The position numbers were made by a program, and so were the translations under genes. A stretch of DNA of 64,000 nucleotides from an uncultured Bacteroidales bacterium (GTDB taxonomy: Bacteria; Bacteroidota; Bacteroidia; Bacteroidales; WCHB1-69). The notes under the pieces were generated by a model. That model was not told the origin of the DNA. It ran no database searches and saw only the letters and a program-made list of their open reading frames with translations. Of this stretch, positions 35,622 through 57,980 are shown piece after piece. The stretch is from the NCBI GenBank assembly GCA_900317715.1, contig ONHS01000015.1:9020-73019 (forward strand). Direction: 5' to 3'. Position 1 is the stretch's first letter; each line of letters starts with the position of its first letter.

Positions 35622-36860
35622 ATGGCAAGTAGAAGAAAAGAACTTTTCCCCAACGTTACCGACGCTGAATGGAACGATTGGAGATGGCAGGTCCGCAACA
35701 GAGTGGAGACCCTCGAAGAACTGAAAAAATACATCGAGTTGACTCCGGAAGAGGAGGAAGGTGTGAAGAAATCACTGCAAACGCTCCGTATGGCCATCAC
35801 GCCGTACTATTTGAGTTTGATTGATCCGAACAACCCGAATTGTCCTATCCGTCGTCAAGCAATCCCGACTGGCGCAGAGGTGCACCAATCCCCTGCCGAC
35901 TTGCTTGATCCGTTGCATGAGGATGAGGACTCCCCGGTTCCCGGCCTCACCCACCGCTATCCCGACAGAGTGCTGTTCCTCATCACGGACATGTGCTCCA
36001 TGTACTGTCGTCACTGCACGCGCCGCAGATTTGCGGGTCAGAACGACTGCGAATCCACGCAGGACCGCATCCAAGCTGCTATCGACTACATTGCCCGCAC
36101 CCCGCAAGTGCGCGACGTGCTCCTCTCTGGTGGTGACGCTTTGATGGTGGGCGACAAGATGCTCGAATCTATCATCCAACGTTTGAGAGCTATCCCGCAT
36201 GTGGAGATTATCCGTCTCGGTTCACGTACGCCTGTGGTTTGCCCGCAGCGTATCACCGACGACCTCGTCAACATGCTCAAGAAATATCACCCGATTTGGC
36301 TCAACACCCACTTCAACCATCCGAACGAGGTGACCGAAGAAGCCATGGCTGCTTGCGCCAAACTGGCTAACGCTGGTGTACCGTTGGGCAACCAAACAGT
36401 GCTGTTGCGTGGCGTGAACGACGACACAGAGATCATGAAACAGCTCGTGCATGACCTCGTGCGTATGCGCGTCCGTCCGTACTACATCTACCAATGCGAC
36501 CTCTCCATGGGTTTGGAACATTTCCGCACGCCCGTCTCCAAGGGTATCGAAATCATCGAGAACCTGCGCGGACACACCTCCGGCTACTGCGTGCCGACCT
36601 TCGTGGTGGATGCTCCTGGCGGTGGCGGCAAAATCCCCGTCATGCCCAACTACGTGATTTCTCAAAGCCCGCACAAAGTGATTTTGCGCAACTACGAAGG
36701 CGTGATCACCACTTACACCGAGCCTGAAGACTACAAGGAGAACACCTGCAGCCCGCTGCCCGACAAGAAGCACGTCGAAGGCGTCGCCTCCCTGCTTCAC
36801 GGCGAACAGATGGCATTAGAGCCGAACGATTTGGCGAGAAAGAAAAGACACAGAAAATAA
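35622..36860 (+). CDS. kamA: Lysine 2,3-aminomutase (radical SAM)
   Basis: 412 aa; CSMYCRHCTRRR cluster motif and KamA-family length/order. Confidence 0.9.
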   Translation: MASRRKELFPNVTDAEWNDWRWQVRNRVETLEELKKYIELTPEEEEGVKKSLQTLRMAITPYYLSLIDPNNPNCPIRRQAIPTGAEVHQSPADLLDPLHEDEDSPVPGLTHRYPDRVLFLITDMCSMYCRHCTRRRFAGQNDCESTQDRIQAAIDYIARTPQVRDVLLSGGDALMVGDKMLESIIQRLRAIPHVEIIRLGSRTPVVCPQRITDDLVNMLKKYHPIWLNTHFNHPNEVTEEAMAACAKLANAGVPLGNQTVLLRGVNDDTEIMKQLVHDLVRMRVRPYYIYQCDLSMGLEHFRTPVSKGIEIIENLRGHTSGYCVPTFVVDAPGGGGKIPVMPNYVISQSPHKVILRNYEGVITTYTEPEDYKENTCSPLPDKKHVEGVASLLHGEQMALEPNDLARKKRHRK

Positions 36861-36871
36861 TATTCAATATT

Positions 36872-36899
36872 GTAGGGGCGAATGATGATTCGCCCCTAC
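36872..36899. repeat. GTAG-headed REP-like hairpin
   Basis: GTAGGGGCGAATgatgATTCGCCCCTAC, 12-bp perfect stem, between convergent kamA and cupin genes. Confidence 0.85.
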
Positions 36900-46604: not shown

Positions 46605-46636
46605 CTGTAGAGACGCAATGCATTGCGTCTCTACAG
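46605..46636. repeat. GTAG-headed REP-like hairpin (perfect 32-bp palindrome)
   Basis: cTGTAGAGACGCAATG|CATTGCGTCTCTACAg between convergent ybaK and blaR1-like genes. Confidence 0.9.
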
Positions 46637-48228: not shown

Positions 48229-48615
48229 CTATTCGGTTTTTGAGGGTGAATCATTTTGCGGAACGGCATCGATCATCCTGCGGATGTCGTCCAGCTCTTC
48301 CAACGTAATATCCTGGTTGTTAGCGAAAAAGGAGACCATTGACTTGAAGGAGTTGTCGAAATAGTTGCGCACGAACTGCTGCATGAACGACTTCGAGTAC
48401 TGTTCCTTGCTCACCAACGGGTAGTAGCGGTTCGACTTCCCGAAGGTCTCGTGCGACACGAACCCCTTCTTTTCGAGAATGCGCACCACGGTCAGCATGG
48501 TGTTGTAGGCCGGCTTCGGTTCCGGGAAATTGGCGATGATGTCGGCGGCGAATCCTTGTTTGATCTGCCACAGCACCTGCATCACCTGTTCTTCTGCTTT
48601 GGTTAATTCTTTCAT
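48229..48615 (-). CDS. BlaI/MecI/CopY-family transcriptional repressor
   Basis: 128 aa winged-helix; MKELTKAEEQVMQVLW...; 2 nt upstream of the M56 gene. Confidence 0.85.
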   Translation of the reverse strand: MKELTKAEEQVMQVLWQIKQGFAADIIANFPEPKPAYNTMLTVVRILEKKGFVSHETFGKSNRYYPLVSKEQYSKSFMQQFVRNYFDNSFKSMVSFFANNQDITLEELDDIRRMIDAVPQNDSPSKTE

Positions 48616-48637
48616 ATCCTTATATTTTATTGGTTAA

Positions 48638-48733
48638 TGTTCATCGTTTTTCATCGTCTATTCATCGTATCATCGTATCATCACATCATCATATCATCGC
48701 ATCATCGTCCCATTCATCGTCCCATTCATCGTC
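48638..48733. repeat. Heptamer array 13 (CATCGNN family; register drifts 7-8 nt)
   Basis: ttcatcg tttttcatcg tctattcatcg tatcatcg tatcatca catcatca tatcatcg catcatcg tcccattcatcg x2. Confidence 0.8.
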
Positions 48734-48857
48734 AAAACGACGCGGCAAAAATACAATTATTTTTTTAATCGTACAACGAAAAAATTAGTTACATATTGCG
48801 TGGTATGAAAAAAAAATTTTTTTTATGAAAATGTTGTGGATCGAATTGGAAATAATG

Positions 48858-48865
48858 TATTTTTG
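48858..48865 (+). promoter_or_regulatory. -7 box TATTTTTG
   Basis: 27 nt upstream of ATG 48892. Confidence 0.5.
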
Positions 48866-48891
48866 CAGTATTAAAAACAAAATTAAAAATT

Positions 48892-49647
48892 ATGGAAACA
48901 AATATGCAATCCCCCCGTAGGGGCGTATCGCATACGCCCCAAGCGCATACGCCCCAAACACATACATTTCACCACCGCCGTAGTATCAGATTAAAAGGAT
49001 ATGATTATTCCGCCGATGGATTGTATTTCATCACCATTTGCACAAAAGAGAGAAATCATTATTTCGGTCGAGTCATTGATGGCAAAATGGTTTTGAATGA
49101 AAGGGGGCAAATCGTAAAAAACGAATGGTTAAATACCATCAACGTAAGAAAAGACGAGGTGATCCTTCATGAATATATCGTTATGCCCAATCATTTTCAT
49201 GCCATTATCGAAATTTGCCGTAGGGGCGTATCGCATACGCCCCAAATACATACGCCGCAATCACATACGCCGCAATCACATACGCCGCAATCACATACGC
49301 CGCAATCACATACGCCGCAATCACATACGCCCGACGACGGCCTAACAACATCAGATAGAGGCGTATGCGATACAATTGATAGGGGCGTATGCGATACAAT
49401 TGACAGGGGCGTATGCGATACAATTGACAGGGGCGTATGCGATACGCCCCTACGGTCACCGTCAAAAACGTTGGGGTCAATTATTCGGGGATTCAAATCC
49501 GCCGTGACAAAACAAATCGGATTTCCGGTATGGCAACGAAATTATCATGAACACATAATCCGAAACACAAACGCATTTACAAAAATCTCAAATTACATCC
49601 TAAATAATCCCGCACAATGGCACTGTGACATGTTCAACAACGGTTGA
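48892..49647 (+). CDS. RAYT-type Y1 transposase (IS200-like) with internal REP/tandem-repeat insert
   Basis: RSIRLKGYDYSADGLYFITICT..., HxH motif MPNHFHAIIEI, C-terminal LGSIIRGFKSAVT...WQRNYHEHIIR Tyr motif; 238-bp repeat block between the two halves stays in frame. Confidence 0.8.
   Translation: METNMQSPRRGVSHTPQAHTPQTHTFHHRRSIRLKGYDYSADGLYFITICTKERNHYFGRVIDGKMVLNERGQIVKNEWLNTINVRKDEVILHEYIVMPNHFHAIIEICRRGVSHTPQIHTPQSHTPQSHTPQSHTPQSHTPQSHTPDDGLTTSDRGVCDTIDRGVCDTIDRGVCDTIDRGVCDTPLRSPSKTLGSIIRGFKSAVTKQIGFPVWQRNYHEHIIRNTNAFTKISNYILNNPAQWHCDMFNNG
49218..49455. repeat. Inverted REP pair with 15-bp (x~5.7) and 24-bp (x~3.9) tandem repeats inside the transposase ORF
   Basis: ccGTAGGGGCGTATcgcATACGCCCC (49218-49243) ... 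(tcacatacgccgcaa)n ... (gataggggcgtatgcgatacaatt)n ... GGGGCGTATgcgATACGCCCCTACgg (ends 49455). Confidence 0.9.
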
Positions 49648-49724
49648 TTAATAAATTGCCAATTGGCATAACGACTTAAGTGTGTCAAACGTTTTTCTTA
49701 TCTTTGCCACTCTAAATAAAAACA

Positions 49725-50918
49725 ATGATGAAAAGAATTATTATCGCCGTATTCTGCTGTTTATCAGCACTTTTCGCATCCGCCAACGACGGCGTGTTCT
49801 ACGCTTCCGGCAACCAGCTGATTCCCATTACGGAGACTGAAATTAGCGTGCAAAAAGAAGTGCTGACCATCAACCGGGTGGGCGACCATCTGGAGGTCAC
49901 CGTCTATTACGAATTCTTCAACCCCGTGGGTGAGAAGGAGCTGCTGGTCGGGTTTGAGGCGCAGTCGGCCTATAACGGCAAGGACCCCATGACCACGTTC
50001 CCGAAACATCCCTACATTCGCAACTTCAAAGTAGTGGTGAATGGCAAGCCGCTATCCTATGAGGTGGCAAACGTTCCCCTATCCTACTATGACGACGGCA
50101 AAATTGTCCCTAACACCTATGTTCGCAATGGGCGCATCGAGAGCTGGACACGCAAGCAGTGCGAGGATTCTATAGCCGCGTGGGAGGATGTAGCCGTCCC
50201 CTTCGACTACGTCTATCATTTCAAGGCGAAGTTCCGTCCGGGACTGAACATCATCCAGCACACCTACGACTTTGACCTCTCCAGTTCCGTGGAGGAGGAG
50301 TTCTACTTTCCCTACGTGCTGACGGCCGCCAACCGATGGGCCAACCACCAGATTGACGACTTCACGCTGAATATCAACCTCGGCGAGCACGTATCGTTCC
50401 ATCTCTTCCCGGAATTTTTCAAAAATGCCGACGAGTGGAAAATTCTTGGCAAGGGTAAATACACCTTAGACTCCACTTGGGGCTTGACAGACGGAAAAGA
50501 GGCCCCTGTTTTCCACGTCCAGCAGGGCGGCATCACCTTCCATAAAGCCAACTTCCATCCCGATGGGGAGCTGCGCATCAGCCAACGCCGCGATTGGTCA
50601 ATCTCGTCCTGGACATGGTCCGGAGAGGACGATGATTTCTCTGCTGAAGACATTTTAGGAGCCCTCAAAGACCAATACATTCCGATTGTACTTCCTGACG
50701 AACGCACGAAAGAAGAGACATATTACACAAGATTCTCACCGGAGCAACGCCGCATCCTCAAAAACCTGCCCTTCGCTTACCAAGGCTATATCTTCAAGGA
50801 CAAAGCGTTACAGGACTTTTTCGAGTCATGTGCATGGTACCTCCCGAACCCAGACTACAAAGGCGACATGGAGGGGTTCACCGAGGAGGAGAAGAAATGG
50901 GTGGAGTTCTGGAAATAG
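49725..50918 (+). CDS. Secreted YARHG-domain protein
   Basis: 397 aa; signal peptide; C-terminal NLPFAYQGYIFKDKALQDFFESCAWYLPNPDY = YARHG pattern. Confidence 0.6.
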   Translation: MMKRIIIAVFCCLSALFASANDGVFYASGNQLIPITETEISVQKEVLTINRVGDHLEVTVYYEFFNPVGEKELLVGFEAQSAYNGKDPMTTFPKHPYIRNFKVVVNGKPLSYEVANVPLSYYDDGKIVPNTYVRNGRIESWTRKQCEDSIAAWEDVAVPFDYVYHFKAKFRPGLNIIQHTYDFDLSSSVEEEFYFPYVLTAANRWANHQIDDFTLNINLGEHVSFHLFPEFFKNADEWKILGKGKYTLDSTWGLTDGKEAPVFHVQQGGITFHKANFHPDGELRISQRRDWSISSWTWSGEDDDFSAEDILGALKDQYIPIVLPDERTKEETYYTRFSPEQRRILKNLPFAYQGYIFKDKALQDFFESCAWYLPNPDYKGDMEGFTEEEKKWVEFWK

Positions 50919-52895: not shown

Positions 52896-54083
52896 ATGGA
52901 ATCCATCAAGAAAATATTCAAAATCGGCTACGGACCGTCCAGCAGCCACACCATGGGACCGCATCGCGCGGCCGAAATCTTCAAAGAGAGAACCCCCGAC
53001 GCCAGCGGCTACCGCGTGACCCTGTACGGCAGTCTCGCGGCCACCGGCAAGGGCCACTTCACCGACAAAACCATCATCGACGCACTCGCGCCAAAACCCG
53101 TGGAAATCCTCTGGAGACCCGACATCCAGCACACCTTCCACACTAACGCCATGCTCTTCGAGGCACTGCGTGGCGAAGAGGTTACCGACCAATGGAAAAT
53201 CTACAGCATCGGCGGCGGCGAGCTGGCCGACGAGAACACCGTGATGGACAAGGAGGAACGCTACGAGGAGAACACCATGGCGGACATCGTGAAACACGTG
53301 GAGAAATACGGGCTGAACTTCTGGGAATATGTGGAACAACACGAAGAATCCGACATCTGGGACTTTTTGGAGGAACGCTGGGAGGTGATGCAGAAGACCA
53401 TCGAAAAAGGCGTGCTGAACAACGACGGAGTGCTGCCCGGCGGACTGTACGTGAAACGGAAGGCCACGCAATACTACGTAAAGGCATTGAGTTACAAGGC
53501 CTCGCTGCAGGGCCGATGCCTCGTGTCGGCTTACGCTTTGGCCACGGCGGAAGAGAACGCCTCGGGCGGTAAAATTGTCACCGCGCCCACCTGCGGCTCG
53601 TCGGGCGTGCTGCCGGCGGTACTCTACCACCTCAAGCACAACCACGAATACACCGACAGATTCATCCTGAAGGCGATGGCCACGGCAGGGCTTTTCGGCA
53701 ACATCATCCGCACAAACGCCTCTGTATCGGGGGCGGAAGTAGGCTGTCAGGGCGAGATCGGCTCTGCATGCGCGATGGCCGCCGCAGCCGCCAACCAGCT
53801 CTTCGGAGGCTCGCCACAACAGATTGAATATGCCGCCGAGATGGGTTTGGAACACCACCTCGGACTCACCTGCGACCCCATCTGTGGCCTCGTGCAGATT
53901 CCCTGCATCGAGCGCAACGCCTTCGCCGCCCTCCGCGCCCTCGACGCCAACCTCTTCGCCATGATGTCCGACGGCAAACACCTCATCAGCTTCGACAAGG
54001 TAGTGAAGACCATGAAACTGACCGGCAAAGACTTGCCCAGCTTGTATAAAGAGACGGCATTGGGCGGTCTGGCGATTGATTAA
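52896..54083 (+). CDS. sdaA: L-serine ammonia-lyase (Fe-S dependent)
   Basis: 395 aa; [28 protein letters not shown] motifs. Confidence 0.85.
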
Positions 54084-54711: not shown

Positions 54712-54746
54712 AATGTAGGGACGCCACAATGTGACGTCCCTACATT
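54712..54746. repeat. GTAG-headed REP-like hairpin
   Basis: AATGTAGGGACGccacaatgtgaCGTCCCTACATT. Confidence 0.85.
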
Positions 54747-57950: not shown

Positions 57951-57980
57951 TGTAGAGACGTTGCGCGCAACGTCTCTACA
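57951..57980. repeat. GTAG-headed REP-like hairpin (perfect 30-bp palindrome) inside the mmd operon
   Basis: TGTAGAGACGTTGCG|CGCAACGTCTCTACA between mmdA and next gene. Confidence 0.9.

Follow-up and report, generated by a model that had tools for sequence, protein, structure and literature searches.

The 64,000-nt stretch of contig ONHS01000015.1 analyzed here (an uncultured Bacteroidales bacterium, assembly GCA_900317715.1; hereafter the window) harbors a gene for a tyrosine transposase of the kind associated with repetitive extragenic palindromes (REPs), known as RAYT, and this gene carries, inside its own coding frame, three copies of a hairpin that is a genuine dispersed REP of the GTAG type. 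These in-gene REPs are most probably tolerated self-insertions of the REPs cognate to the enzyme, lodged in a permissive loop of a subclass 2.4 RAYT gene and expanded there by slippage. In-gene REPs were already published in 2018 as a hallmark of TnpA_REP subclass 2.4 (Quentin, Siguier, Chandler & Fichant 2018, BMC Genomics 19:475, PMC6006769), which corresponds to RAYT group 4 (Bertels, Gallie & Rainey 2017, PMC5581495), and the window gene adds one clean example to them. Among domesticated transposases that live alongside miniature elements of their own, RAYT/REP systems are the best known. The locus described below offers one fixed site with many alleles that differ just in repeat-unit number, together with alleles in which REPs have deleted half of the gene, and could thus serve to tell neutral, self-regulatory and self-destructive in-gene REPs apart.

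The open reading frame (ORF) of 251 amino acids (aa) lies at 48892-49647 on the forward strand, and its translation contains both MPNHFHAIIEI and WQRNYHEHIIR. An earlier note on this DNA had taken these for the HxH and tyrosine halves of a Y1 transposase, which was confirmed by the ORF listing, the NCBIfam family REP_Tyr_transpos, and profile and Foldseek matches to the E. coli TnpA_REP structure 4ER8. The gene and its motifs, the latter placed from the translation, are:

48892..49647, plus strand: RAYT / TnpA_REP gene, subclass 2.4; the conserved core comprises residues ~32-111 and 187-250
49189..49200, plus strand: HUH motif NHFH, residues 100-103
49531..49545, plus strand: WQRNY, residues 214-218, the catalytic tyrosine motif (Y218), which includes the subclass signature 'WQ'
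49594..49611, plus strand: YILNNP, residues 235-240, the subclass 2.4 signature YIxNNP

H101 and H103 were invariant in alignments of 26 and of 51 homologues, as was N100 in the latter; W214 and R216 were invariant too, and Q215, N217 and Y218 were kept in at least 90% of homologues. The full protein matched REP_Tyr_transpos (NF047646) with an E-value of 2.8e-14 (53.2 bits) in two stretches split by an insert, and removal of this insert and of the N-terminal extension gave a single stretch covering profile positions 7-132 of 146 (58.6 bits). A profile of the 26 homologues found E. coli TnpA_REP 4ER8 as the sole sequence of the Protein Data Bank. In an AlphaFold model built from the 51 homologues, the core was confident (block means of the predicted local distance difference test, pLDDT, of 86-97), while pLDDT fell below 50 in residues 1-31 and 112-186, which are exactly the REP-derived parts. 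Foldseek ranked 4ER8_A first for this model (E 6.5e-6, template modeling score normalized to the target 0.60, root-mean-square deviation 2.4), followed by IS200/IS605 TnpA structures. The model places insert residues 112-186 between the HUH-bearing strand E101-108 (beta3) and helix H194-209 (alphaC). The signatures of subclass 2.4 / group 4 (NH[IFV]H, WQ and YIxNNP) were all present, and every feature of the subclass that was checked is found in the window gene. Sequence and model together support its assignment as a RAYT-type Y1 transposase of TnpA_REP subclass 2.4, Bertels group 4.

The palindrome GGGGCGTAT-NNN-ATACGCCCC occurred exactly three times in the 64-kb window (48920, 49223 and 49430), each time within the RAYT ORF, for an expectation of zero in shuffled sequence; all nine window copies of the arm GGGGCGTAT were likewise inside this ORF (0.24 expected). 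The 26-nt arms at 49218-49243 and 49430-49455 were 100% complementary, and 48915-48940 was a perfect direct repeat of the former and fully complementary to the latter. On its own strand, each in-gene hairpin is directly preceded by GTA before the first G of the stem, which yields a GTAG tag, and the stem foot of all three is GGGG/CCCC. Stems beginning with GTAG had been described before: the tag is indeed present, but it does not add four bases, since its last G is the first paired base of the 9-bp stem. The importance attached to this tetranucleotide was correct, as E. coli TnpA_REP needs GTAG both to bind and to cleave (Ton-Hoang 2012, PMC3333891). The repeats within the gene are:

48917..48940, plus strand: REP 1, perfect hairpin with a GTAG tag, a 9-bp stem and a CGC loop, read as RRGVSHTP in the N-terminal extension
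48929..48965, plus strand: 15-bp half-REP array (loop, 3' arm and spacer), 2.5 copies, read as HTPQ units (Tandem Repeats Finder)
49220..49243, plus strand: REP 2, GTAG-tagged hairpin identical to REP 1, which follows the HUH strand immediately (CRRGVSHTP) and forms the left arm of the inverted pair
49230..49331, plus strand: 15-bp array, 6.8 copies of the unit ATCACATACGCCGCA, a diverged REP loop and 3' arm read as SHTPQ (Tandem Repeats Finder score 176, 93% matches)
49360..49445, plus strand: 24-bp array, 3.6 copies of a unit made of the inverted REP 5' arm, the loop and 4 nt, read as DRGVCDTI (Tandem Repeats Finder score 165, 98% matches)
49430..49453, minus strand: REP 3 (inverted REP), the hairpin of REP 1 and REP 2 in inverted orientation

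Pattern counts and Tandem Repeats Finder bore out the order given in the earlier note, with a hairpin, a 15-bp array, a 24-bp array and the inverted hairpin following each other in frame between the two motifs, and with a third, exact hairpin copy (48920) in the N-terminal codons followed by HTPQ units. The arrays themselves stood but their copy numbers shifted, from about 5.7 and 3.9 to 6.8 and 3.6 for the 15-bp and 24-bp units, respectively; the first of these differences arises because the first, hairpin-derived unit was counted differently. The insert of ~75 aa holds two REPs and two tandem arrays, with a 186-nt spacer between the inverted REPs. The CTAC tag of REP 3 is translated as P-L-R of a TPLRSPS segment that leads into helix alphaC and is conserved among homologues.

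Folded as single-stranded DNA, the segment 49210-49462, which includes the 238-bp block of the earlier note, gives a single long hairpin with imperfections (-65.8 kcal/mol; z = -8.4 relative to shuffled sequence). An Rfam search of 48500-49900 gave no score near the gathering thresholds, and a known RNA family finds no support there. All in-gene hairpins and arrays leave the RAYT frame open, and insertions can in large part stay open because the REP unit contains no stop codon in five of six frames. A conserved HHRRSIRLKGYDYS motif stands upstream of the protein core in the homologue alignment. That REP 1 is an extragenic REP mistakenly included in the ORF was rejected: no in-frame ATG, GTG or TTG was found between it and the conserved HHRRSIRL motif, and because no in-frame start codon separates REP 1 from the conserved HHRRSIRLKGYDY motif, REP 1 must be translated. 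The reverse complement of the insert is open as well (ORF 49197-49496, minus strand, with peptides RRGVSHTP...GVCDTPLR), a consequence of the palindromic design. An invertible switch at the 26-nt inverted repeats was also considered: inverting 49244-49429 would keep the 251-aa frame, but the inverted peptide pattern was seen in 0 of 120 homologues, and such a switch has no support.

Outside the window, the hairpin was found in at least 119 stretches from many phyla when one genome per species was scanned for an exact match to the 18 specified bases, against roughly 9 expected by chance (rough estimate, 596e9/4^18). Among the matches listed, hosts included Bacteroidota, Ignavibacteria, Desulfobacterota, Chloroflexota, Cyanobacteria, Planctomycetota, Clostridia, Pasteurellaceae, Moraxella and others; a RAYT-like gene was found in the examined flanks of just 4 of the 119 stretches, which excludes a restriction of the hairpin to RAYT genes, and in 105 of 140 hairpin copies one side bore the GTAG tag, the loop being oriented accordingly. 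The flanks of these copies were mutually unrelated, and several genomes each held 3-4 separate hairpin loci or contigs. Because it spans many phyla, with unrelated flanks, GTAG tags and several loci per genome, the hairpin is a genuine dispersed REP of the GTAG type. The earlier proposal of a REPIN-like doublet (REP doublet forming a hairpin) of the enzyme's presumed own REP was sustained in that the hairpin is dispersed and GTAG-tagged, flanks homologous RAYT genes, and is listed in the supplement on subclass 2.4. A literature search with the hairpin sequence returned just unrelated primer lists, the sequence being found solely in this supplement (PMC6006769).

One metagenome-assembled genome of Ignavibacteriaceae (L010, CAZMAR010000001.1, 472001-480000) held 12 exact hairpin copies in 8 kb, alternating in orientation and spaced ~125 nt apart (4069/4196, 4332/4458, 4596/4719), with flanks that are alike too. 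This cluster is an array of REP doublets resembling the bacterial interspersed mosaic elements of E. coli (BIMEs, clustered REP pairs) or REPINs. An identical 9-bp-stem GTAG palindrome is shared by over a dozen phyla (loci L001-L119), with Patescibacteria and Omnitrophota at one end of the range and Pasteurellaceae and Cyanobacteria at the other. Such a spread would fit horizontal transfer in which subclass 2.4 RAYTs travelled with a single cognate REP that hardly varies.

Homologues of the window protein displayed the same hairpins at the DNA level. The protein search returned thousands of relatives, 120 of which were listed and span 179-312 aa. As the earlier note anticipated, their alignment defined the insert, and the length differences fell mostly within the N-terminal extension and the loop that follows the HUH motif. 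Relatives of ~180 aa at ~50% identity (Capnocytophaga, Phocaeicola) retain C-RGV(S/L)HTP ... GVC(D/N)TPL(R/Q)SPS in this loop, and these peptides are, at the DNA level, a REP and an inverted REP. The Capnocytophaga locus L125 has a GTAG-GGGCGTAT-tgc-ATACGCCC hairpin 66 nt upstream of the RAYT gene and an inverted pair 38 nt apart in the loop, so that the three gene-nearest REPs (one upstream, two in the loop) are all GGGCGTAT/ATACGCCC. Loci L124 and L126 have in-gene and flanking REPs that are all GGGCGAAT/ATTCGCCC and translate as RGESHSP and GECDSPLR; relative to the window peptide, V is changed to E together with T to S, and base pairing is preserved. At locus L127, as in homologues P0112 and P0119, the hairpin is read in another frame, as VGANGIRP. 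The order of REP, N-terminal half, REP/inverted REP and C-terminal half recurs in Bacteroidales, Capnocytophaga and Pasteurellaceae (L118), and every member inspected has its half-REP arrays 3' of (inward from) each GTAG-oriented REP; the P0076 group (SPQRMKSPS) has lost the inverted partner in its loop. In both L124 (10633-10655) and L126 (6443-6465), the TAG stop of the RAYT gene is supplied by the GTAG of the immediate 3' REP.

Synonymous sites of the core were saturated between the window and distant homologues (pS 0.72-0.79), with dN/dS of 0.11-0.14. The stems are perfect despite this saturation, and the only stem changes are compensatory pairs that alter amino acids. Since the stems stay perfect while core synonymous sites are saturated and compensatory changes alter the peptide, what is conserved is the hairpin in DNA (or RNA), and not the peptide. 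The match between in-gene REPs and those flanking the gene in distant homologues supports the view that the former are the cognate REPs of the enzyme.

Several metagenome contigs carried the RAYT gene at one and the same site, with BlaR/BlaI-type genes upstream and a gene for a YARHG-domain protein downstream. One sister-strain allele (L122) showed no difference from the window in the first 395 nt (100% identity) and an identity of 98.8% past the arrays, and was shorter by exactly three 15-bp and two 24-bp units. Another (L123), with 94% core identity to the window, had about ten HTPQ units behind the N-terminal REP, and the N-terminal HTPQ array of allele P0031 also reached up to ~10 units. 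In L129 (3001-3441) the HUH half is gone, the segment equivalent to about 48941-49243 of the window having been deleted exactly between two direct REPs. In L130 (3001-3528) the RAYT sequence breaks off a few HTPQ units past the loop REP, where it gives way to unrelated DNA and a second copy of BlaR/BlaI. The arrays vary by whole units and the REPs mark deletion breakpoints, so that, of the meanings suggested beforehand (autoregulation, self-targeting, expansion hot spot), it is the hot spot that was upheld, by the unit losses of L122 and the REP-bounded deletions of L129 and L130.

The window gene differs from the published members of subclass 2.4 in no respect of kind. The subclass has been reported from Cyanobacteria, Bacteroidetes and scattered phyla, with the motifs NH[IFV]H, WQ and YIxNNP and a mean length of 194 aa (PMC6006769); the base length of ~180-195 aa is seen in the short homologues of the window protein, which is itself at the long end (251 aa). 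REPs of the subclass are GT[AG]G-tagged and 'canonical long', with three G-C pairs at the foot, or 'double-foot'; uniquely, they are found within tnpA_REP genes without disrupting the frame, generally between HuH and Y, and the beta3-alphaC insertion is highly variable owing to short repeats (PMC6006769). An 8-aa insertion at the alphaB end and a conserved motif ahead of the core are further traits of the subclass. The window shares the GTAG REPs, the G-C foot, the double-foot REPs (see below), the in-frame REPs between HuH and Y and the short-repeat insertion; no REP outside the ORF was found within 1 kb of the gene. The same hairpin stands in the supplementary table of that study, where the subclass 2.4 REPs include GTAGGGGCGTATTGCATACGCCC (AGH38469.1) and GTAGGGGCGAATTGCATTCGCCC (ABG59502.1), and where both GTAGGGGCGTAT..ATACGCCC and GTAGGGGCGAAT..ATTCGCCC are present. 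In the searchable text of the same paper no statement was found on strains that differ in unit number at one fixed chromosomal locus, on deletions bounded by REPs that remove half the gene, on compensatory stem substitutions that change amino acids or an alternative hairpin frame, or on half-REP arrays 3' of each REP and an exact cross-phylum identity of the hairpin; relative to that searchable text, these details are an incremental addition.

Other REP systems resemble this one less closely. The E. coli TnpA_REP (subclass 2.2, 4ER8; REP/BIME, REPtron; PMC3333891, Messing 2012 PMC3479197) has the same HUH/Y1 fold, the GTAG at the 5' foot and pairs of REP and inverted REP, but the window protein is only ~14% identical to it over the fold alignment, and its motifs are DHLH, WE and YIHYNP, against NHFH, WQ and YILNNP in the window (PMC6006769). 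E. coli REPs are imperfect, with a stem mismatch that is required for TnpA_REP binding (PMC3333891), and flank the gene, whereas the window stems are perfect 9-bp palindromes with 3-nt loops inside the ORF. REPINs of Pseudomonas (Bertels & Rainey 2011, PMC3116915) likewise consist of two inverted REPs with outer GTAG tags, fold as a pair into one long hairpin and are tied to a single-copy RAYT at a fixed locus. Unlike them, the window doublet has no second copy as a unit in the 64 kb (nor do its spacer units), its 186-nt spacer is made of tandem half-REP units, and the element is translated. In-frame GTAG/CGTC REPs have been described in many unrelated genes, with GTAG tags giving stop codons (Di Nocera et al. 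2013, PMC3733652). These intragenic REPs and the Rickettsia palindromic elements (RPEs) are, as here, short palindromes inserted in frame into the loops or termini of proteins that probably retain their function (PMC3733652), and the TAG stops supplied by GTAG are paralleled in the homologous loci L124 and L126. In contrast to both, the host gene of the window encodes the presumed mobilizing enzyme, and the insertion site is common to the whole subclass.

The explanation favored here would have the enzyme, acting near its own gene, place REPs there and keep them uniform with the REP pool of the genome, with one REP in the N-terminal extension and an inverted pair in the loop that joins the HUH strand (beta3) to helix alphaC. 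In-frame insertions would be tolerated at these places because the REP unit is open in five of six frames and the loop is disordered and peripheral, the catalytic core remaining under purifying selection throughout. Half-hairpin units (the loop and one arm) have undergone tandem duplication, always by a multiple of three bases, 3' of (inward from) each REP. Slipped-strand mispairing probably drives the gain and loss of units, favored by the alternative pairing of one arm with several tandem partner arms. A basic doublet of ~80 bp probably grew in this way into the 238-bp REPIN-like block, making the locus length-polymorphic between strains. The repeats also serve as the breakpoints of deletions that destroy the gene in some strains, and the translated insert itself would be functionally neutral.

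Several observations weigh against this explanation or the assignments on which it builds. The protein misses the NCBIfam equivalog cut-off of NF047646 (80 bits) with or without the insert, and the Pfam family PF01797 (Y1_Tnp) scored 11.8 bits for the full protein and 17.9 without the insert, below the gathering score of 23. The NF047646 E-values (1e-14 to 1e-16) denote homology, yet the protein is no equivalog under the NCBI rule. The exact hairpin was absent outside the RAYT gene from the 64-kb window and from the syntenic stretches of sister strains (~20 kb), so that the dispersed-REP status of the hairpin within this particular genome is unproven. A lack of further copies in 64 kb is unremarkable and not decisive, because group 4 RAYTs have ~14 genome-wide copies of their flanking 16-mers per replicon (PMC5581495). 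The dN/dS of 0.41 between close alleles (window against L123) would agree with a relaxation of constraint in this lineage. The copy numbers derive from metagenomes assembled from short reads (k-mers up to 141), in which arrays of 90-100 bp may be miscounted. Finally, perfect palindromes over saturated divergence would not be predicted by a purely neutral, once-only insertion and call for continuing renewal or selection, either of which could keep the stems perfect.

The main rival explanation is a selective one. The in-gene REPs could be selected cis elements, bound as single-stranded DNA or mRNA hairpins of the gene itself by the RAYT or another REP-binding factor, which would amount to autoregulation or a self-limiting switch. 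As a self-recognition device, the enzyme would bind, or cut at, hairpins formed by the DNA or mRNA that encodes it, thereby throttling the gene or disabling it irreversibly through REP-to-REP excision of the HUH half, and the number of half-REP units would tune the throttling or the switch-off. Stems that are perfect in all lineages examined over saturated synonymous sites, compensatory changes made at the cost of amino acids, the recurrence of one REP order from Bacteroidales to Capnocytophaga and Pasteurellaceae, and natural alleles that have lost the HUH half exactly between direct REPs would all fit such a role. Renewal or conversion from the genomic REP pool explains the maintenance equally well, however, given that in-gene and flanking REPs are the same within a genome. 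Moreover, unit number and spacing vary freely among strains, the inverted loop partner is lost in some homologues (the P0076 group), and the published homology model locates the region at a distance from the sites of DNA binding and catalysis (PMC6006769). Both the cis-element role and its self-recognition form are thus judged unlikely, if still worth considering, beside tolerated self-insertion.

An explanation at the protein level fares far worse and is hardly tenable. The repeats would encode a functional peptide, such as a Cys/His-rich module binding a metal or a partner ((S/Q)HTPQ, DRGVCDTI), and the palindromes would be incidental. The units are indeed rich in His and Cys, every array is a multiple of 3 bp, and RGVSHTP and GVCDTPLRSPS recur in 120 of the 120 listed homologues. 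A repeat domain is nevertheless largely refuted by the frame change to VGANGIRP in P0112 and P0119 and by the paired V/T to E/S changes that preserve base pairing; in addition, third-codon positions required for pairing are invariant, near-identical alleles differ in unit number, pLDDT stays below 50 across the whole insert, and the palindrome is mostly extragenic elsewhere. Decay of the gene, in which REP invasion and repeat expansion would have put the transposase of this lineage out of action and left the open frame as a remnant, is very improbable, though less so than a peptide module. It could draw on the deleted and truncated alleles L129 and L130, on the dN/dS of 0.41 against L123 and on an insert that doubles the distance between HUH and Tyr. 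Against such a relic stand an ORF that most alleles have kept whole through numerous independent unit changes, all of them in frame, the conserved residues of the HUH and Tyr motifs, the low long-range dN/dS and the confidently modeled core; inserts are, besides, the rule within subclass 2.4.

The same data carry a warning for annotation. Repeats such as RGVSHTP, GVCDTPL, VGANGIRP and HTPQ are translated REP DNA and no protein motifs, and translated REP peptides drag such genes under Pfam and NCBIfam thresholds.

A scan of the window for tagged hairpins, in which double-foot palindromes score once per strand, returned 15 rows (five double-foot palindromes, the three in-gene REPs and two other tagged hairpins), against 0-4 rows in shuffled sequences. 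The five double-foot palindromes, all intergenic and without an assigned strand, are:

36872..36899: double-foot REP GTAGGGGCGAAT-gatg-ATTCGCCCCTAC, 12 nt past the stop of ORF 35622-36860
46607..46634: GTAG...CTAC palindrome with a GAGACGCAA stem, flanked by genes that converge, as called at the syntenic locus L122
54089..54116: GTAG...CTAC palindrome with one mismatch, 6 nt after ORF 52896-54083
54715..54743: GTAG...CTAC palindrome with one mismatch, with convergent ORFs on either side
57952..57979: GTAG...CTAC palindrome with a GAGACGTTG stem, between two co-directional genes, kept in L120 and L122

The stem of the first (GGGGCGAAT/ATTCGCCCC) is one compensated base pair away from the in-gene stem. 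The refuting condition set in the earlier note, a hairpin missing everywhere else in the genome, was not triggered, in view of this compensated variant, the four further double-foot REPs and the exact copies in other genomes; an exact copy outside the gene was nonetheless missing from the 64 kb. The five palindromes lie directly downstream of genes or between convergent genes, and most are of the type TGTAGAGACG..CGTCTCTACA. By sequence they look like the dispersed REP population of the window genome, and they could act as bidirectional terminators too.

Between the BlaI-like gene and the RAYT gene, short tandem repeats unrelated to the REP were observed at 48640-48733, namely 2.7 perfect copies of TCATCGTCCCAT and 5.9 copies of the 8-bp unit TCATCGTA, followed by an A9/T9 run (gaaaaaaaaattttttttt) at ~48808-48827. 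The -7 promoter consensus of Bacteroidetes is TAnnTTTG. The motif TATTTTTG at 48859-48866, 26-33 nt upstream of the RAYT ATG, fits this consensus and suggests that the RAYT gene may have its own promoter.

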